From IMG/VR virus record IMGVR_UViG_2529293039_000013: a stretch of 50,040 nucleotides of DNA. The stretch is one strand, 5' to 3'. A program made the position numbers and the translations under genes. The DNA is from a virus (Duplodnaviria > Heunggongvirae > Uroviricota > Caudoviricetes). Under the pieces are notes generated by a model, which did not search any database, was not told the DNA's origin, and saw nothing but the letters and a program-made list of their open reading frames with translations. Numbering within the stretch: position 1 is the stretch's first letter; each line of letters opens with the position of its first letter. Shown piece after piece: positions 22,669 through 35,789 of this stretch.

Positions 22669-23217
22669 ATGAACGTCAATAAGAAAAAACTGGCCGATAT
22701 TTTTGGCGTTGATGTCAGGACCATCACCGCCTGGCAGAGTCAGGGGTTACCACTAGTTTCTGGTGGAGGGAAAGGGACTGAATCAGTTTTTGATACAACT
22801 GCTGCCATTCAGTGGTATGCGCAGAGGGAAGCTGATATTGAAAACGAAAAACTCCGTAAAGAGAGCGAGGATTTGAGGGCTGCCAGCGAATCAGACCTTC
22901 AGCCCGGCACCATTGATTACGAACGTTACCGACTGACGAAGGCACAGGCCGATGCACAGGAGCTGAAAAATGCTCGTGAGGAAGGCCTTGTCCTCGAGAC
23001 GGAGTTATTTACCTACATCTTTCAGCGAGTGGCACAGAATATATCAGGGATCCTTGTCCGTGTCCCTCAGACACTGCAGCGTAAATACCCTGATATATCA
23101 CCCGCACATCTTGATGCTGTGAAAACTGAAATCGCGAAAGCATCCGATGTGGCTTCTGAAGCCGGTGAGAATGTGCGCAGGTGGATTGATGATTTCAGAC
23201 GAACTGAGGGCGGCTAA
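22669..23217 (+). CDS. terminase small subunit (lambda Nu1-like)
   Basis: N-terminus [28 protein letters not shown] matches lambda Nu1 from memory. Confidence 0.85.
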
Positions 23218-25116
23218 TTCTGCAGGAGCGATAGCAACCGGCCTCCTTGCGCTAAAAATTCCTGTCCCTCTGACGACAGTTCAGTGGGCAGATCGACATT
23301 ATTACCTTCCGAAAGAGTCATCTTACACCCCGGGGCGGTGGGAAACACTGCCGTTTCAGGTTGCCATCATGAACAGCATGGGGAATGACCGGATCCGCAC
23401 TGTTAATCTGATTAAATCTGCCCGTGTTGGTTATACAAAGATGTTGCTGGGAGTGGAGGCTTATTTTATTGAGCATAAATCACGCAACAGCCTTCTTTTC
23501 CAGCCCACGGATTCTGCTGCTGAAGATTTTATGAAATCTCATGTGGAACCCACGATCAGGGATGTGCCGGTTTTACTCGATCTTGCACCGTGGTTTGGGC
23601 GTAAACATCGTGATAATACCCTCACGCTGAAACGCTTTTCATCGGGCGTCGGTTTCTGGTGCCTGGGCGGCGCTGCCGCCAAAAACTACCGTGAAAAATC
23701 CGTGGACGTGGTCTGCTATGACGAACTTTCCTCGTTCGAGCCGGATGTCGAAAAAGAGGGCTCGCCAACCCTGCTGGGGGATAAGCGTATTGAGGGGTCG
23801 GTGTGGCCAAAATCCATTCGCGGCTCGACGCCTAAAATCAAAGGCACCTGCCAGATCGAAAAAGCGGCCAACGAGTCGGCGCATTTCATGCGTTTTTATG
23901 TGCCCTGCCCGCACTGTGGGGAGGCGCAGTATCTGAAATTTGGCGATGAGTCCACGCCTTTTGGGCTTAAATGGGAGAAGGACAGTCCCGAAAGCGTTTT
24001 CTACCTCTGTGAACATCATGGCTGCGTGATCCATCAGTCTGAGCTTGACCAGAACAACGGGCGGTGGATCTGTGAAAACACGGGCATGTGGACCCGTGAC
24101 GGTCTGACGTTTTTCAGCGCCCGGGGTGATGAAATTCCGCCGCCGCGCTCCATCACGTTCCATATCTGGACGGCGTACAGTCCGTTCACCACCTGGGTAC
24201 AGATTGTCTATGACTGGCTGGATGCACTGAAAGATCCCAACGGCCTGAAAACCTTTGTGAACACCACGCTGGGCGAGACCTGGGAAGAGGCCGTGGGCGA
24301 AAAACTCGATCACCAGGTACTGATGGATAAGGTGGTGCGTTACACGGCGGCGGTGCCTGCCCGGGTGGTTTATCTGACGGCGGGCATTGACTCGCAGCGA
24401 AACCGTTTTGAGATGTATGTCTGGGGATGGGCTCCGGGAGAGGAAGCTTTTCTGGTGGATAAAATCATCATTATGGGGCGTCCTGATGAGGAAGAGACGC
24501 TGTTACGTGTGGATGCGGCGATCACAAAAAATACCGCCATGCGGATGGCACCGAAATGACTATTTCCCGTGTCTGCTGGGACACCGGGGGGATCGATGGT
24601 GAAATTGTTTATCAGAGATCAAAAAAACACGGTGTTTTCCGGGTGCTGCCGGTAAAAGGCGCATCTGTCTATGGCAAGCCGGTGATCACCATGCCAAAAA
24701 CCCGCAATCAGCGGGGCGTGTATCTGTGTGAAGTGGGAACGGACACCGCAAAAGAAATTCTCTATGCCCGTATGAAAGCCGATCCCTCGCCTGCGGATGA
24801 AGCCACGTCGTATGCCATCCGTTTTCCTGATGATCCGGAGATTTTTTCGCAGACAGAGGCGCAGCAACTGGTGGCGGAAGAGCTGGTGGAGAAGTGGGAA
24901 AAAGGAAAGATGCGTCTGCTGTGGGATAACAAAAAGCGGCGTAACGAAGCGCTGGACTGCCTGGTGTATGCCTACGCGGCATTACGTGTGTCCGTGCAAC
25001 GCTGGCAGCTTGATCTGGCTGTACTGGCAAAATCCCGGGAAGAAGAGACGACCCGGCCAACCCTGAAAGAACTGGCAGCGAAGCTGTCCGGAGGAGTGAA
25101 TGGTTACAGTCGCTGA
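23189..25116 (+). pseudogene. terminase large subunit (lambda A-like), interrupted by a frameshift
   Basis: track ORFs 23147-24559 and 24556-25116 are in different frames; both match lambda gpA; junction in an A-run. Confidence 0.8.
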
Positions 25117-25306
25117 ACTGCAGGCGCTGCGTCAGGCGCGCCTTGATTTATTAACCGGTAAACGGGTGGTGTCTGTCCAGAAAGATGGTCGCAGAATTGA
25201 ATATACGGCGGCTTCTCTGGATGAGCTTAACCGGGCGATCAATGATGCGGAGTCGGTACTGGGGACAACCCGGCGTCGCCGTCGTCCGCTGGGAGTGAGG
25301 TTATGA
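25100..25306 (+). CDS. head-tail joining protein W
   Basis: 68 aa; LTGKRVVSVQKDGRRIEYTAAS matches lambda gpW from memory. Confidence 0.8.
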   Translation: MVTVAELQALRQARLDLLTGKRVVSVQKDGRRIEYTAASLDELNRAINDAESVLGTTRRRRRPLGVRL

Positions 25307-26896
25307 AACGAACGCCTGTCCTGATTGATGTGAACGGCGTTCCGCTTCGTGAGAGTCTCAGCTACAACGGGGGCGGTGCAGGATTTGGCGGGCAAATGGC
25401 GGAGTGGTTGCCACCGGCGCAGAGTGCCGATGCGGCCCTGCTGCCCGCGTTGCGTCTGGGGAATGCCCGGGCAGATGATCTGGTGCGCAATAACGGAATA
25501 GCGGCCAATGCGGTGGCCCTGCATAAGGATCACATTGTCGGGCATATGTTTCTTATCAGCTACCGTCCGAACTGGCGCTGGCTGGGGATGCGGGAGACCG
25601 CAGCAAAAAGCTTTGTCGATGAGGTGGAGGCGGCCTGGTCGGAATACGCCGAAGGGATGTCTGGCGAGATCGACGTGGAAGGAAAACGCACGTTCACGGA
25701 ATTTATCCGTGAAGGTGTGGGCGTTCATGCGTTTAACGGCGAAATCTTTGTGCAGCCGGTCTGGGATACGGAAACCACGCAGTTATTCCGTACGCGTTTT
25801 AAAGCCGTGAGTCCGAAACGGGTGGACACGCCAGGACACGGTATGGGGAACCGTTTTCTGCGGGCCGGGGTGGAGGTCGATCGATATGGCCGTGCCGTTG
25901 CGTACCATATCTGTGAGGATGATTTTCCGTTCTCCGGGAGTGGACGATGGGAACGGATCCCGCGTGAACTTCCCACCGGGCGTCCGGCCATGCTGCATAT
26001 TTTCGAGCCGGTAGAGGACGGGCAGACCCGTGGGGCCAACCAGTTTTACAGCGTCATGGAACGGCTGAAGATGCTCGATTCCCTGCAGGCAACACAGCTT
26101 CAGTCGGCCATTGTGAAAGCCATGTATGCAGCGACGATTGAAAGTGACCTTGATACCGAAAAGGCCTTTGAATATATCGCCGGTGCGCCGCAGGGGCAGA
26201 AGGATAATCCGCTTATTAATATTCTGGAGAAGTTCTCCAGCTGGTATGACACGAATAACGTGACGCTGGGTGGTGTCAAAATTCCGCACCTTTTCCCCGG
26301 GGATGATCTGAAACTACAGACTGCGCAGGATTCAGACAATGGATTTTCGGCGCTTGAACAGGCGCTGCTGCGGTATATCGCCGCCGGTTCTTGGCGTTTC
26401 CTACGAACAGTTGTCCCGTGATTACTCGAAGGTCAGTTATTCAAGTGCCAGGGCCTCTGCCAATGAGTCGTGGCGCTATTTTATGGGGCGGCGAAAATTT
26501 ATTGCGGCCCGGCTGGCCACGCAGATGTTTTCCTGCTGGCTGGAAGAGGCACTTCTTCGGGGGATTATCCGTCCGCCACGGGCGCGTTTTGATTTTTATC
26601 AGGCGCGATCAGCCTGGTCACGGGCAGAGTGGATTGGTGCCGGAAGAATGGCCATTGACGGGCTCAAGGAGGTTCAGGAATCGGTGATGCGCATTGAGGC
26701 CGGACTGAGCACGTATGAGAAAGAGCTGGCGCTGATGGGCGAGGATTATCAGGACATTTTCCGCCAGCAGGTCAGGGAATCTGCAGAGCGGCAAAAAGCC
26801 GGACTCTCACGTCCGGTGTGGATAGCGCAGGCGTATCAGCAGCAGATAGCGGAGAGTCGCAGGCCGGAAGAGGAGACAACACCCCGTGAGACGTAA
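25303..26896 (+). pseudogene. portal protein (lambda B-like), interrupted by a frameshift
   Basis: track ORFs 25303-26421 and 26339-26896 in different frames; junction at LLRYIAAG / LGVSYEQLS. Confidence 0.8.
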
Positions 26897-28393
26897 TCTT
26901 TCACACATTATTGCCGCAGCATTCAATGAACCGCTGCTTCTGGAGCCCGCCTATGCGCGGGTTTTCTTTTGCGCGCTCGGGCGCGAGATGGGGGCAGCAA
27001 GTCTTTCGGTACCACAGCAGCAGGTACAGCTTGATGCTCCCGGAATGCTGGCTGAAACGGACGAGTACATGGCCGGAGGTAAACGACCGGCCCGTGTTTA
27101 CCGGGTGGTGAACGGTATTGCGGTACTGCCGGTGACCGGCACGCTGGTGCACCGGCTGGGGGGGATGCGGCCATTTTCCGGAATGACAGGCTATGACGGC
27201 ATTGTCGCCTGTCTTCAGCAGGCAATGGCGGATAGCCAGGTGCGGGGCGTACTGCTGGGACATTGACAGTCCGGGCGGGCAGGCCGCCGGCGCGTTTGAC
27301 TGCGCTGACATGATTTACCGCCTCCGTCAGCAGAAGCCGGTCTGGGCACTGTAGCAATGACACGGCCTGTTCTGCAGCCATGCTGCTGGCGTCGGCCTGC
27401 TCCCGACGGCTGGTTACCCAGACATCCCGTATCGGCTCCATTGGCGTGATGATGAGCCATGTCAGCTATGCCGGTCATCTGGCGCAGGCCGGTGTGGATA
27501 TCACGCTGATTTACTCAGGGGCGCACAAGGTGGATGGCAATCAGTTTGAAGCCTTACCGGCAGAGGTTCGCCAGGACATGCAGCAGCGCATTGATGCGGC
27601 GCGCCGGATGTTTGCCGAAAAAGTGGCCATGTTTACCGGTCTGTCTGTTGATGCCGTCACGGGAACAGAGGCCGCCGTTTTTGAAGGTCAGTCCGGCATT
27701 GATGCCGGGCTGGCGGATGAATTAGTCAATGCGTCGGATGCCATCAGTGTGATGGCCACGGCGCTGAACAGTAATGTCAGAGGAGGCACTATGCCGCAAT
27801 TAACTGCAACGGAAGCCGCCGCGCAGGAGAACCAGCGAGTGATGGGGATCCTGACATGCCAGGAAGCGAAAGGACGTGAACAGCTTGCCACGATGCTGGC
27901 AGGACAACAGGGCATGAGCGTTGAACAGGCCCGGGCGATTCTGGCCGCGGCGGCACCGCAGCAGCCGGTGGCATCCACGCAGAGTGAAGCCGATCGCATT
28001 ATGGCGTGTGAAGAAGCGAACGGTCGTGAACAACTGGCGGCAACGCTGGCGGCGATGCCGGAGATGACGGTGGAAAAAGCCCGCCCGATCCTGGCTGCTT
28101 CACCGCAGGCGGATGCCGGACCCTCACTCCGTGATCAGATCATGGCACTGGATGAGGCAAAAGGGGCTGAGGCGCAGGCTGAACAGCTGGCTGCCTGCCC
28201 GGGAATGACTGTGGAGAGCGCCCGGGCTGTGCTGGCTGCGGGATCAGGTAAGGCAGAACCGGTCTCTGCATCCACAACCGCCCTGTTTGAACGCATCATG
28301 GCGAACCATTCACCGGCTGCGGTACAGGGTGGCGTGCCACAGACGTCAGCAGACGGTGATGCGGACGTGAAAATGCTCATGGCCATGCCATGA
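26886..28393 (+). pseudogene. head maturation protease/scaffold C (lambda C/Nu3-like), interrupted by two frameshifts
   Basis: N-part ends 27266, C-part starts 27380; conserved middle segment reads in the third frame. Confidence 0.75.
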
Positions 28394-28429
28394 AGCCAGT
28401 GCTGACCATCAACAGGAGGTTTTTACAAT

Positions 28430-28777
28430 ATGGTAACGAAAAACATCACTGAACAGCGTGCGGAAGTACGTATTTTTGCCGGTAATGATCCGGCTCATAC
28501 CGCCACAGGCAGCAGCGGGATTTCCTCGGCAACACCGGCACTGACGCCCCTGATGCTGGATGAAGCCAGCGGGAAACTGGTGGTCTGGGACGGACAGAAA
28601 GCCGGTAGTGCAGTTGGCATACTGGTACTGCCGCTTGAAGGCACAGAGACGGTACTGACCTATTACAAGTCGGGGACCTTTGCGACGGAGGCAATCCGCT
28701 GGCCTGAAAGTGTGGATGAACACAAAAAGGCAAATGCCTTTGCCGGCAGTGCCCTGAGTCACGCGGCGCTGCCGTAA
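28430..28777 (+). CDS. head decoration protein D
   Basis: GNDPAHTATGSSG and YYKSGTFAT motifs match lambda gpD from memory. Confidence 0.8.
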   Translation: MVTKNITEQRAEVRIFAGNDPAHTATGSSGISSATPALTPLMLDEASGKLVVWDGQKAGSAVGILVLPLEGTETVLTYYKSGTFATEAIRWPESVDEHKKANAFAGSALSHAALP

Positions 28778-28834
28778 CACGTTATCAGGCCACCGCGGTG
28801 GCCTGACTGATTTCTGAATGAAAGGAACTGATTT

Positions 28835-29863
28835 ATGGGATTGTTTACGACCCGCCAGTTACTCGGTTATACCGAACAAAAAGTGAAATTTCGTGCGCTG
28901 TTTCTGGAGCTGTTTTTCCGCCGTACGGTGAATTTCCATACCGAAGAGGTGATGCTGGACAAAATTACCGGAAAAACGCCGGTGGCGGCCTATGTCTCCC
29001 CGGTTGTTGAAGGAAAAGTGCTGCGTCATCGCGGTGGTGAAACCCGCGTGTTACGTCCGGGCTACGTCAAGCCGAAACACGAATTTAATTACCAGCAGGC
29101 GGTTGAGCGTCTTCCCGGTGAAGATCCGGCTCAACTGAACGACCCGGCCTACCGTCGTCTGCGTATCATCACCGATAACCTCAAACAGGAAGAGCATGCC
29201 ATTGTCCAGGTGGAAGAAATGCAGGCGGTGAATGCCGTGCTGTATGGCAAATACACCATGGAAGGGGATCAGTTTGATACTGTCGAGGTGGATTTTGGAC
29301 GCTCTGAAGGAAATAACATTGAGCAGGCCGACGGTAAAAAATGGTCTGAGCAGGACCGTGATACGTTTGATCCGACGCATGATATTGACCTCTACTGCGA
29401 TCAGGCCAGCGGTCTTGTGAATATTGCCATTATGGACGGTACTGTCTGGCGTCTGCTGAATGGTTTTAAGCTGTTCCGCGAAAAACTGGATACCCGTCGC
29501 GGCTCAAATTCACAACTCGAAACGGCAGTGAAAGACCTGGGCGCGGTGGTGTCTTTCAAAGGGTATTACGGCGATCTGGCCATTGTGGTGGCGAAAACGT
29601 CTTATGTGGCAGAGGACGGTACCGAAAAACGTTATCTGCCGGAGGGCACGCTGGTCCTGGGAAATACGGCTGCAGATGGGATCCGTTGTTACGGTGCCAT
29701 TCAGGATGCGCAGGCGTTGTCCGAAGGTGTGGTGGCTTCTTCCCGTTACCCGAAACACTGGCTGACCGTGGGCGATCCGGCCCGTGAATTTACCATGACG
29801 CAGTCCGCACCGCTGATGGTGCTGCCGGATCCGGATGAGTTTGTGGTGGTGCAGGTGAAATAA
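28835..29863 (+). CDS. major capsid protein E
   Basis: 342 aa; strong match to lambda gpE from memory (TGDPAREFTMTQSAPLM). Confidence 0.9.
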   Translation: MGLFTTRQLLGYTEQKVKFRALFLELFFRRTVNFHTEEVMLDKITGKTPVAAYVSPVVEGKVLRHRGGETRVLRPGYVKPKHEFNYQQAVERLPGEDPAQLNDPAYRRLRIITDNLKQEEHAIVQVEEMQAVNAVLYGKYTMEGDQFDTVEVDFGRSEGNNIEQADGKKWSEQDRDTFDPTHDIDLYCDQASGLVNIAIMDGTVWRLLNGFKLFREKLDTRRGSNSQLETAVKDLGAVVSFKGYYGDLAIVVAKTSYVAEDGTEKRYLPEGTLVLGNTAADGIRCYGAIQDAQALSEGVVASSRYPKHWLTVGDPAREFTMTQSAPLMVLPDPDEFVVVQVK

Positions 29864-30644: not shown

Positions 30645-30659
30645 ACGCAGGGTGAAATT

Positions 30660-32358: not shown

Positions 32359-32790
32359 ATGTTTCTGAAAACAGAACAATTTGAATATAACGGTGTGTCC
32401 GTCACGCTTTCCGAATTGTCTGCGCTGCAGCGTATTGAGCATCTTGCCCTCCTGAAACGGCGTGCAGAACAGGCAGAATCCAGCGGCAACCTGCAGGTAA
32501 GCGTGGAAGATCTCGTCAGAACCGGCGCGTTTCTGGTGGCGATGTCCCTGTGGCATAACCATCCGCAGAAAACGGCATCACCGTCAATGAATGAGGCTGT
32601 GATGCAGATCGAACAGGAGGTGCTCACCACCTGGCCTGCGGATGCCATTGCCCGGGCGGAAGATGTGGTGTTGCGTCTGTCCGGGATGAGCGGGGCTGTT
32701 CATGCGGATACTGACAGCACCGAAGTGGCGAAAAATAACGCGCTGACTGATGATGATTTTTCTGCGGGAAAGTCTTCGACGGCGAGCTGA
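32359..32790 (+). CDS. tail assembly chaperone G
   Basis: MFLKTEQFEYNGVSVTLSELSALQRIEHLAL matches lambda gpG; GGAGG RBS. Confidence 0.8.
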   Translation: MFLKTEQFEYNGVSVTLSELSALQRIEHLALLKRRAEQAESSGNLQVSVEDLVRTGAFLVAMSLWHNHPQKTASPSMNEAVMQIEQEVLTTWPADAIARAEDVVLRLSGMSGAVHADTDSTEVAKNNALTDDDFSAGKSSTAS

Positions 32791-33230
32791 ATTTTGCCCT
32801 CAGACTGGCGCGTGAGATGGGGAGGCCTGACTGGCGCGCCATGCTTGCCGGGATGACATCCACCGAATATGCCGACTGGCGACATTTTTACCGTACGCAT
32901 TATTTTCTCGATACCCAACTGGATATGCATTTTTCCGGGCTGACGTACGCCGTACTCAGCCTGTTTTTTTGCGATCCGGATATGCATCCCTCTGATTTCA
33001 GTCTGCTTGCCCCCCGGCGTGAGGAAGCGCAGACGGAGATGCCGGATGAGGAAAAAATGCTGATGCAGAAAGCGGCAGGACTTGCCGGAGGCGTCCGGTT
33101 TGGTGGGGACGGAGGGCGTGAGATTTTATCGTCTGCGGATGTGGCGGATGTCAGCGAGGATGATGTCGCATTAATGATGGCTTCAGCGGGGATTTCCGGA
33201 GGTGTGAGATATGTCCCAGCCGGTTGGTGA
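32359..33230 (+). CDS. tail assembly chaperone G-T fusion made by programmed -1 frameshift
   Basis: slippery G GGA AAG near end of G; -1 frame continues as T-like sequence (FDGELNFALRLAREMGRPDWRAMLAG) to 33230. Confidence 0.65.
32766..32772 (+). promoter_or_regulatory. programmed -1 ribosomal frameshift slippery heptamer GGGAAAG
   Basis: canonical lambda G-T slippery sequence in the expected frame. Confidence 0.6.
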
Positions 33231-35789
33231 TCTTGTTATTGACCTGAGTCTGGATGCGGTCCGTTTCGATGAGCAGATGAGCCGGGTAAGGCGTCATTTT
33301 TCCGGACTGGAGACTGACGCCAGAAAAACCGCCGGTGTTGTTGAGCAGAACCTGAGTCGTCAGGCGCTGGCTGCACAAAAAGCCGGGATTTCCGTCGGGC
33401 AGTATAAAGCGGCCATGCGAACCCTGCCCGCACAGTTTACGGATATCGCCACGCAGCTTGCCGGTGGTCAGAATCCCTGGCTGATCCTGCTGCAACAGGG
33501 CGGTCAGGTGAAGGACTCCTTCGGCGGGATGATCCCCATGCTCAGGGGACTTGCCGGTGCGATCACCCTGCCGATGGTCGGGGTCACCTCGCTGGCGGTG
33601 GCGACAGGTGCGCTGGCGTACGCCTGGTACCAGGGGGATTCCACGCTTTCAGCGTTTAATAAAACCCTGGTTCTTTCCGGTAATCAGTCCGGACTGACTG
33701 CCGATCGCATGCTGACGCTCTCCAGAGCCGGACAGGCCGCAGGGCTGACGTTTAACCAGGCGAGTGAGTCACTGGCAGCCCTGGTGAATGCCGGTGTGCG
33801 TGGTGGTGAACAGTTTGATGCCATCAACCAGAGTGTCGCGCGTTTTGCTTCTGCATCCGGTGTGGAGGTGGACAAGGTTGCAGAGGCTTTCGGAAAACTG
33901 ACTACCGACCCGACGTCGGGACTGATGGCGATGGCGCGCCAGTTCCGTAACGTGACGGCAGAGCAGATTGCGTATGTTGCACAGCTGCAGCGTTCCGGAG
34001 ACGAGGCCGGGGCATTGCAGGCGGCGAACGATATCGCCACGAAAGGCTTTGATGAGCAGACCCGTCGCCTGAAAGAAAACATGGGAACACTGGAGACCTG
34101 GGCGGATAAAACAGGGAAGGCATTCAAATCGATGTGGGATGCCATTCTGGATATCGGTCGTCCTGAGTCCTCAGCGGATATGCTCGCCAGTGCACAGAAG
34201 GCATTTGATGAGGCGGATAAAAAATGGCAGTGGTACCAGAGCCGGAGCCAGCGCCGGGGAAAACCGCCTCTTTCCGGGCCAACCTTCAGGGCGCATGGAA
34301 TGACCGGGAAAATGCCCGTCTGGGGCTGGCAGCGGCCACGCTGCAGTCGGATATGGAAAAAGCCGGTGAACTGGCCGCCAGGGACCGGGCCGAACGGGAC
34401 GCATCACAGCTGAAGTATACCGGAGAGGCGCAGAAGGCGTATGAGCGTCTGCTGACGCCGCTGGAGAAATATACCGCCCGTCAGGAAGAACTGAATAAGG
34501 CCCTGAAAGACGGGAAAATCCTGCAGGCGGATTACAACACGCTGATGGCGGCGGCGAAAAAGGATTATGAATCGACGCTGAAAAAGCCGAAGTCGTCAGG
34601 AGTCAAAGTGTCAGCCGGTGAGCGTCAGGAAGACCAGGCGCATGCTGCCCTGCTGGCGCTTGAAACCGAGCTCCGGACGCTGGAAAAACACAGCGGTGCG
34701 AATGAGAAAATCAGCCAGCAGCGTCGCGATTTATGGAAAGCGGAAAATCAGTATGCGGTCCTGAAAGAGGCAGCCACGAAACGGCAGTTATCTGAGCAGG
34801 AAAAATCCCTGCTGACCCATGAGAAAGAGACGCTGGAGTACAAACGCCAGCTGGCTGAGCTGGGAGACAAAGTTGAACACCAGAAACGGCTGAATGAGCT
34901 GGCACAGCAGGCTGCGCGGTTTGAACAGCAGCAGAGTGCGAAGCAGGCGGCAATCAGTGCCCAGGCGCGGGGCCTCACCGACCGTCAGGTGCAGCGGGAG
35001 TCGGAAGAGCAGCGCCTTCGTGACGTGTACGGTGATAATCCGGATGCGCTGGCGAAGGCCACATCTGCACTGAAGAACACCTGGTCTGCGGAGGAGCAGC
35101 TTCGTGGAAGCTGGATGGCCGGTCTGAAGTCCGGCTGGGGCGAGTGGGCAGAAAGTGCGACGGACAGTTTTTCGCAGGTTAAAAGCGTGGCCACGCAGAC
35201 CTTTGACGGTATTGCACAGAATATGGCAGCGATGCTGACCGGCAGCGAACAGAGCTGGCGTGGTTTCACCCGTTCTGTGCTCTCCATGCTGACAGAGATT
35301 TTTCTGAAGCAGGCCATGGTGGGGATTGTCGGGAGTATTGGCAGCGCCATGGGTGGTGCTTTCGGTGGTGGGGCGTCTGCCTCCACGGGGACGGCCATTC
35401 AGGCTGCGGCGGCGAACTTCCATTTCGCGACCGGAGGATTTACGGGAACCGGTGGCAAATACGAACCTGCCGGTATTGTCCACCGCGGGGAGTTTGTCTT
35501 CACGAAGGAGGCAACCAGCCGGATTGGCGTCGGCAACCTGTATCGTCTGATGCGCGGGTATGCGGAAGGTGGTTATGTGGGCGGTGCCGGAAGTCCGGCG
35601 CAGATGCGGCGGGCGGAAGGCATTAGTTTTAATCAGAACAATCACGTGGTGATTCAGAACGACGGCACCAACGGACAGGCGGGGCCGCAGCTGATGAAGG
35701 CGGTGTATGACATGGCCCGCAAGGGGGCGCAGGATGAGATTCAGGCGCAGATGCGTGATGGCGGCGTCTTTTCCGGAGGCAGGCGATGA
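33211..35789 (+). pseudogene. tail tape measure protein H, interrupted by a frameshift
   Basis: track ORFs 33211-34413 and 34224-35789 in different frames; both match lambda gpH; junction at an A-run. Confidence 0.8.

Follow-up and report, generated by a model that had tools for sequence, protein, structure and literature searches.

The stretch of DNA analysed here (the window, 50,040 nucleotides) is a lambdoid prophage that carries type III effector genes and lies beside potB. Its positions 14556-35116 are 100% identical to AIFC01000020.1 (GCA_000249215.2), a draft contig of E. coli DEC2D. The early, regulatory and lysis genes are all intact. Downstream of the Q antiterminator gene the prophage has a tRNA cluster of its own; it is read by ARAGORN as tRNA-Met (CAT), then tRNA-Arg (TCG) and tRNA-Arg (TCT), and its first member is annotated as tRNA-Ile in a relative (L016). 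The right end of the prophage is occupied by effector cargo, in which the espW ORF is intact with a T5 run; in the related L013 sequence the run is T4 and the gene is annotated as frameshifted. The coordinates of these features are collected in the table.

The head genes keep the order terS-terL-W-portal-protease-D-E, and the large terminase subunit belongs to the gpA type. Nucleotide identity of the terminase region with the terminase genes of phage 21 reaches 92.8%. Like phage 21 gp2 and lambda gpA, the terL product has both expected Pfam domains and its gene stands in the arrangement Nu1-A-W-B-C-D-E; unlike them, the gene in the window is interrupted at residue ~446, midway through the nuclease domain. 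By tblastn, the neighbouring small subunit and the intact protein of L013 share 99.5% identity across 182 aa.

Table. Features of the window, with positions counted from its first nucleotide
Feature	Position	Strand	Detail or basis
tRNA cluster	15439-15688
terS, small terminase of Nu1 / phage-21 gp1 type, intact, 182 aa	22669..23217	+	tblastn and Pfam Phage_Nu1
Stretch identical to both L018 and L019; 3.3-kb exact two-copy repeat in GCA_900448265.1	22691..26012
terL N-part: GpA_ATPase and first half of GpA_nuclease, frameshifted tail TKNTAMRMAPK before the stop	23189..24559	+
Sole interval with both terL frames open	24490..24559	+
terL C-part: second half of GpA_nuclease and C-terminus	about 24523..25116	+
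terL lesion: 'AC' for 'AAC' (Asn codon) of all relatives, one A lost	24524..24525	+	Pairwise and multiple alignments
A6 tract, wild-type length	24526..24531	+	Intact A6 allele exact in 552 complete-genome records
Portal split, +T (GGTCTT to GGTTCTT)	26388	+	ORFs 25303-26421 and 26339-26896 (372 aa, 185 aa)
gpC (S49 protease/scaffold) insertion, +G	27257	+	tblastn, DNA alignments
gpC insertion, +A, non-homopolymer context	27353	+	tblastn, DNA alignments
Extra A between FII and Z	30655
G_GGA_AAG motif	32766-32772
Tape measure (gpH) -1 frameshift, -C	34257	+	ORFs 33211-34413 and 34224-35789
Cu/Zn superoxide dismutase sodC (Sod_Cu), prophage cargo between tail genes I and J	38331-38858	-
J gene frameshift, A6 to A5	41672..41676	+	ORFs 38992-41745 (917 aa) and 41697-42467 (256 aa)
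IS21-family element (istA 340 aa, istB ~260 aa), between lom-like and tail-fibre genes	43269-45070
Type III effector cargo, prophage right end	46871-50040
Partial nleG-like ORF	46871-47350
espW	47480-48538	-
nleG/DUF1076	48617-49267	-
bfpT-regulated chaperone-like gene	49450-50040

The start of terL at 23189 is the one annotated in intact relatives. From there the frame runs to ...RVDAAITKNTAMRMAPK and meets a TGA stop at 24557-24559, while the -1 frame, open from 24490 to 25116, reads ...KKYRHADGTEMTISRVCWDTGGID; both readings agree with what the initial annotation had described for the ends of the two frames. Taken as an ORF of its own, the C-part begins with an ATG at 24556, encodes 186 aa and overlaps the stop of the N-part in the sequence ATGA. 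Since the two frames are open together only between 24490 and 24559, the change of frame must fall in that interval. With 99.1% and 99.5% identity to an intact TerL, the two pieces do not reflect a chance pattern of ORFs.

At the protein level, the ATPase domain (GpA_ATPase, PF05876) is contained in the N piece (Pfam; residues 46-293, E = 2e-56). The nuclease domain (GpA_nuclease, PF20454) is divided in the deposited sequence, where the N piece covers profile positions 3-131 and the C piece 141-287, and no single polypeptide holds it complete; it becomes contiguous (profile positions 3-286, residues 323-601) only when one A is restored. Aligned with lambda gpA, the repaired protein shows 67% identity over 625 aa and no gap at the junction, where the Asn-Lys pair is conserved, so that the resemblance to gpA claimed earlier does run unbroken across the two frames. 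A search of the TerL sequence against solved structures gave no match. The initial annotation was thus right that a single-base frameshift near 24526-24531 divides a lambda-gpA-type TerL.

The exact place of the lesion follows from comparison with intact genes, namely those of E2348/69 (L001), Z1323HEC0423 (L002), L013, L014 and the two prophages L018 and L019 of GCA_900448265.1. In the alignments the intact relatives read GCG GCG ATC AAC AAA AAA TAC and the window reads GCG GCG ATC AC AAA AAA TAC, at about position 78197 of AIFC01000020.1. Around the lesion the window has GATC-ACAAAAAATACC, as against GATCAACAAAAAATACC in L001, L002, L014, L018, L019 and 552 complete-genome records, and the deposited state at the lesion itself is GATCACAAAAAATACC. 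Lambda has AAT (Asn) at the lost codon, followed by AAA (Lys). The split of terL is therefore real in the deposited sequence, and the lesion adjoins the A6 tract but lies outside it. The tract occupies exactly the six positions assigned to it by the initial annotation, which had, however, set the lesion within the run and taken A7 as the intact state; the intact relatives also have A6, preceded by AAC, and the missing A belongs to that codon.

The earlier suggestion that one more A restores the gene is correct only as regards the reading frame. Lengthening the tract to A7 yields one ORF, yet with Thr-Lys-Lys instead of the ancestral Asn-Lys-Lys, and the ancestral protein is recovered only with the A placed in the AAC codon. 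With that base put back, TerL has 642 aa and differs by 1 residue from the protein of E2348/69 and by 2 from the Z1323HEC proteins. Its match to P0001 (CTT18989.1 and others), an intact E. coli TerL found on 32 contigs, is exact.

Allele searches used queries of 84-85 nt, for which a single difference lowers the identity below 99%; as a check, the query for the J allele returned its true exact carriers first, at 100%. Among 5,426 complete E. coli genomes, the terL allele of the window has no full-length exact match, and neither has an A5 variant of the tract, as against the 552 complete-genome records with an exact match to the intact allele. A collection of about 15 billion proteins contains no record of the 456-aa N-product. 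The broken products that are on record are listed as 'Escherichia coli DEC2D' (NCBI, UniRef), each from AIFC01000020.1 (121,877 bp) alone; they are EHU45756.1 (TerL piece), EHU45850.1 (portal piece) and EHU45790.1 (gpC piece).

The terL lesion has company. Breaks of frame, located by tblastn with intact L013 proteins and by DNA alignments, reveal four single-base indels private to DEC2D (one in terL, one in the portal gene and two in gpC), all within a 5.6-kb stretch. They are absent from every comparator (12-13), the near-clonal L018 included. The records give a single contig for the 372-aa portal piece and likewise for a 126-aa piece of gpC, a gene that its two insertions spread over three frames. 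The four indels are of mixed sign (-A, +T, +G, +A) and stand in contexts of 0-2 nt, which is unlike replication slippage in long runs. Over positions 23600-29085, set against 12-13 comparators, the window has 1 private substitution and 4 private single-base indels. In E. coli mutation-accumulation data, the indel fraction of mutations is about 0.1. If indels make up ~10% of mutations, a ratio of four indels to one substitution has P ~5e-4.

Pairwise comparisons give the same picture. Between 22691 and 35119 (12.4 kb), the window differs from the near-clonal L018 by 4 substitutions and by exactly the four private indels. Between 13261 and 26012 (12.7 kb), it differs from L019 by 1 substitution, the terL indel and the length of one G-run, the last being in the same state in the window and in L016. 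L018 and L019 are the two prophages of GCA_900448265.1, the closest relative, and their TerL proteins are identical. Beyond the 3.3-kb stretch in which they match each other and the window exactly, they remain ~99.3% alike on to ~28318 and then diverge sharply. All four private indels fall inside this two-copy zone of the relative, from 22691 to ~28318, and none in the ~17 kb of single-copy flanks; under uniform placement, such confinement has P ~0.0035. The draft contigs of relatives break at the boundary of the zone (L029 starts at 28596, L030 starts at 28996 and L025 ends at ~28857), as a multi-copy repeat would produce. Within it, sibling drafts of adjacent accession have private single-base indels of their own, with -A and +G at the start of the portal gene in L025 (AIEZ01) and three breaks in terL in L006 (AIFD01).

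An assembly of poor quality throughout can be rejected. There are no indels between 1 and 6536 relative to L015, except for one gap at a mosaic boundary, none between 10967 and 17191 relative to L016, and none between 28596 and 36312 relative to L029 and L030. The extra A at 30655 that separates the window from L002 and L014 is shared with L018, L029 and L030; judged by this distribution, it is a polymorphism of the lineage, not an indel private to the window.

The same relatives also bear on the origin of the contig as a whole. The early region of the window corresponds to L019 and the late region to L018, which lie at ~4.19 Mb and 0.57 Mb, respectively, on the relative's contig and in opposite orientation. 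The zur/dusA locus is where the left-arm genes are found in other E. coli, and the right arm abuts potB. With its two halves at different loci elsewhere, the contig is either a real inter-prophage recombinant (by inversion) or a chimera joined across the 3.3-kb exact repeat.

Two further genes are broken in the window. L018 has the tape-measure gene split in the same way, leaving a 400-aa piece, and an exact copy of that piece is present in both AIFD01 (L029) and GCA_024495785.1 (L030); aligned with the window over 7.1-7.7 kb, these two show 2-4 substitutions and 0 indels. A frameshift common to four independent assemblies is a genuine lesion of the lineage, and the prophage is therefore truly defective. 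In the J gene, the 917-aa piece is known from DEC2D only; of 610 matching complete genomes, 2 (AUSMDU00002545 and ATCC 43889) have the 84-nt A5 allele exactly, which makes that allele a recurrent homopolymer variant, and the break in the window may be either real or an error.

The A-run, which drew attention to the locus, invites two explanations of its own. An ancestral A7 could have slipped to A6, and this is what the initial annotation had in mind. A7 would indeed restore the frame, and the tract varies elsewhere, being A5 in L006 (5924, a sibling draft) and in the Logan read assemblies L008 and L010, and A7 in L004 and L005; L007 has an extra T upstream of it. Slippage in the run thus fits these other records but not the window. 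The A7 records are themselves frameshifted (+1) in this gene and have many other homopolymer indels, all intact relatives (L018, L019 and the 552 records among them) have A6 with the extra base in the AAC codon, and in lambda the codon missing from the window still encodes Asn. An A7 ancestor is accordingly rejected as highly improbable. On the sequences compared, the tract is indel-prone in databases but is not what changed in the window, and the cluster of four indels speaks for an artefact of sequencing or assembly and not for biological slippage in the A-run. The alternative explanation is that the split is functional, the two ORFs being joined into a near-full-length TerL by a programmed or tolerated -1 frameshift on A_AAA_AAU or by transcriptional slippage on the A6 tract. 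The codons ACA AAA AAU of the N frame do form an X_XXY_YYZ heptamer (24526-24532), the shift needed is -1 and a 5-bp hairpin lies 4 nt downstream. In these formal respects the locus resembles known programmed -1 sites, such as G_GGA_AAG of lambda G/GT or A_AAA_AAG of dnaX and IS elements; it differs from them in a two-ORF layout that is not conserved, in a weak AAU codon and in the apparent want of a significant stimulatory structure. The heptamer is owed solely to the deletion, since the relatives have a single ORF in which the tract is read AAC AAA AAA UAC. The 89-nt downstream fold has z = -1.73 and is equalled by 13 of 200 shuffles. Transcriptional slippage is not efficient on a run as short as A6. 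The canonical G_GGA_AAG of such phages stands elsewhere in the window, in frame and 18 nt before the stop of gpG (gpG 32359-32790, gpT 32817-33230), where it appears to be an intact lambda G/GT programmed -1 site. The -1 heptamers that work efficiently in E. coli end in A_AAG, and those of the A_AAA_AAC type are termed inefficient; in constructs lacking a stimulator, background frameshifting is ~0.055% and shift-prone motifs reach 2-10 times that level (PMC4066793). A functional programmed frameshift, named by the initial annotation as a finding that would count against a simple lesion, is thus supported neither by conservation nor by the heptamer nor by the fold, and it is rejected; recoding of any kind at the tract is very improbable. 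It is hardly to be expected, either, that a real deletion should by chance have framed A_AAA_AAU and allowed low-level -1 frameshifting or rare transcriptional slippage to make traces of TerL (…AAITKN-YRHADG…). If it had, the result would be a 'leaky' terminase in a domesticated effector prophage.

A weightier possibility, though still an unlikely one, is that the deletion is real and private to the strain, terL being a pseudogene in a decaying prophage. With a broken tape measure no tails would be made, the loss of terminase, portal and protease would be neutral, and the effector cargo (espW, nleG, trcA-like) would be retained. The defect of the lineage in the reproducible tape-measure frameshift indeed makes further inactivating mutations neutral and plausible. 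The IS21-family element in the tail-fibre region and the A6-to-A5 break in J are in keeping with decay, and the product with its nuclease domain cut in half is predicted to be non-functional. Defective prophages that carry effectors are common in EPEC, as exemplified by E2348/69, in which the head/tail region is deleted; the window resembles the cryptic lambdoid prophages of EPEC and EHEC in its T3SS effector cargo, its genuine frameshift in the tape measure and its IS21-family insertion. It departs from their pseudogenes in a terL break that no other assembly reproduces and that is free of substitution drift. No other record has the lesion, the repaired protein equals the known P0001 and 1 private substitution is found in 5.5 kb. 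The excess of private indels over substitutions is the inverse of the natural spectrum, the indels are limited to the two-copy zone, and the sibling drafts are broken at different places of that zone. A lesion inherited in the lineage is rejected, as the near-clonal L018 and L019 are intact. If the mutation were real, the product would be without half of its nuclease domain and the prophage would be unable to cut or package cos DNA.

On these comparisons, the terL break is probably an artefact of the consensus or of the assembly. This reading draws on an allele private to one record when 552 records carry the intact one, on the absence of other damage to the repaired protein, on private indels that far exceed substitutions, in reverse of the natural mutation spectrum, on the co-location of the four indels with the repeat and not with the single-copy flanks, and on the contig breaks and differing indels of related drafts. 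AIFC01000020.1 would have been assembled from reads of two near-identical prophage copies taken together, the second DEC2D copy being presumed, and an error of consensus or base calling would there have dropped one A of ATC-AAC, ahead of a normal A6 tract. The real genome would then encode an intact TerL of 642 aa, with its ATPase motor and cos-cleaving nuclease. As L018 and L019 are identical at 24524, a mixture of copies alone does not explain a miscall at that position. Known indel errors and repeat collapse in draft assemblies are matched by the preponderance of private single-base indels over substitutions, by the stretch that is multi-copy in the relative and by the differing sibling drafts. 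They are matched less well by a terL lesion that falls in a 2-nt run (AA to A) and not in the adjoining 6-nt run, and by one gpC insertion in a non-homopolymer context. Given where the lesion lies, its confinement to one record, the clustering and the identity of the repaired protein with a known one, a technical cause is most likely, and EHU45756.1, EHU45850.1 and EHU45790.1 are probably artefactual fragments.

The terL feature is most probably ordinary, an error in the record. For the biology of the prophage it has little weight, since at best it would be another broken gene in an already defective element. It serves rather as a caution: unless reads or near-clonal references are at hand, frameshifts in multi-copy structural modules of prophages in draft genomes should not be taken for pseudogenes, recoding sites or slippage hot spots, and the base which mends a frame by eye, here in the A-run, may not be the one that went missing.
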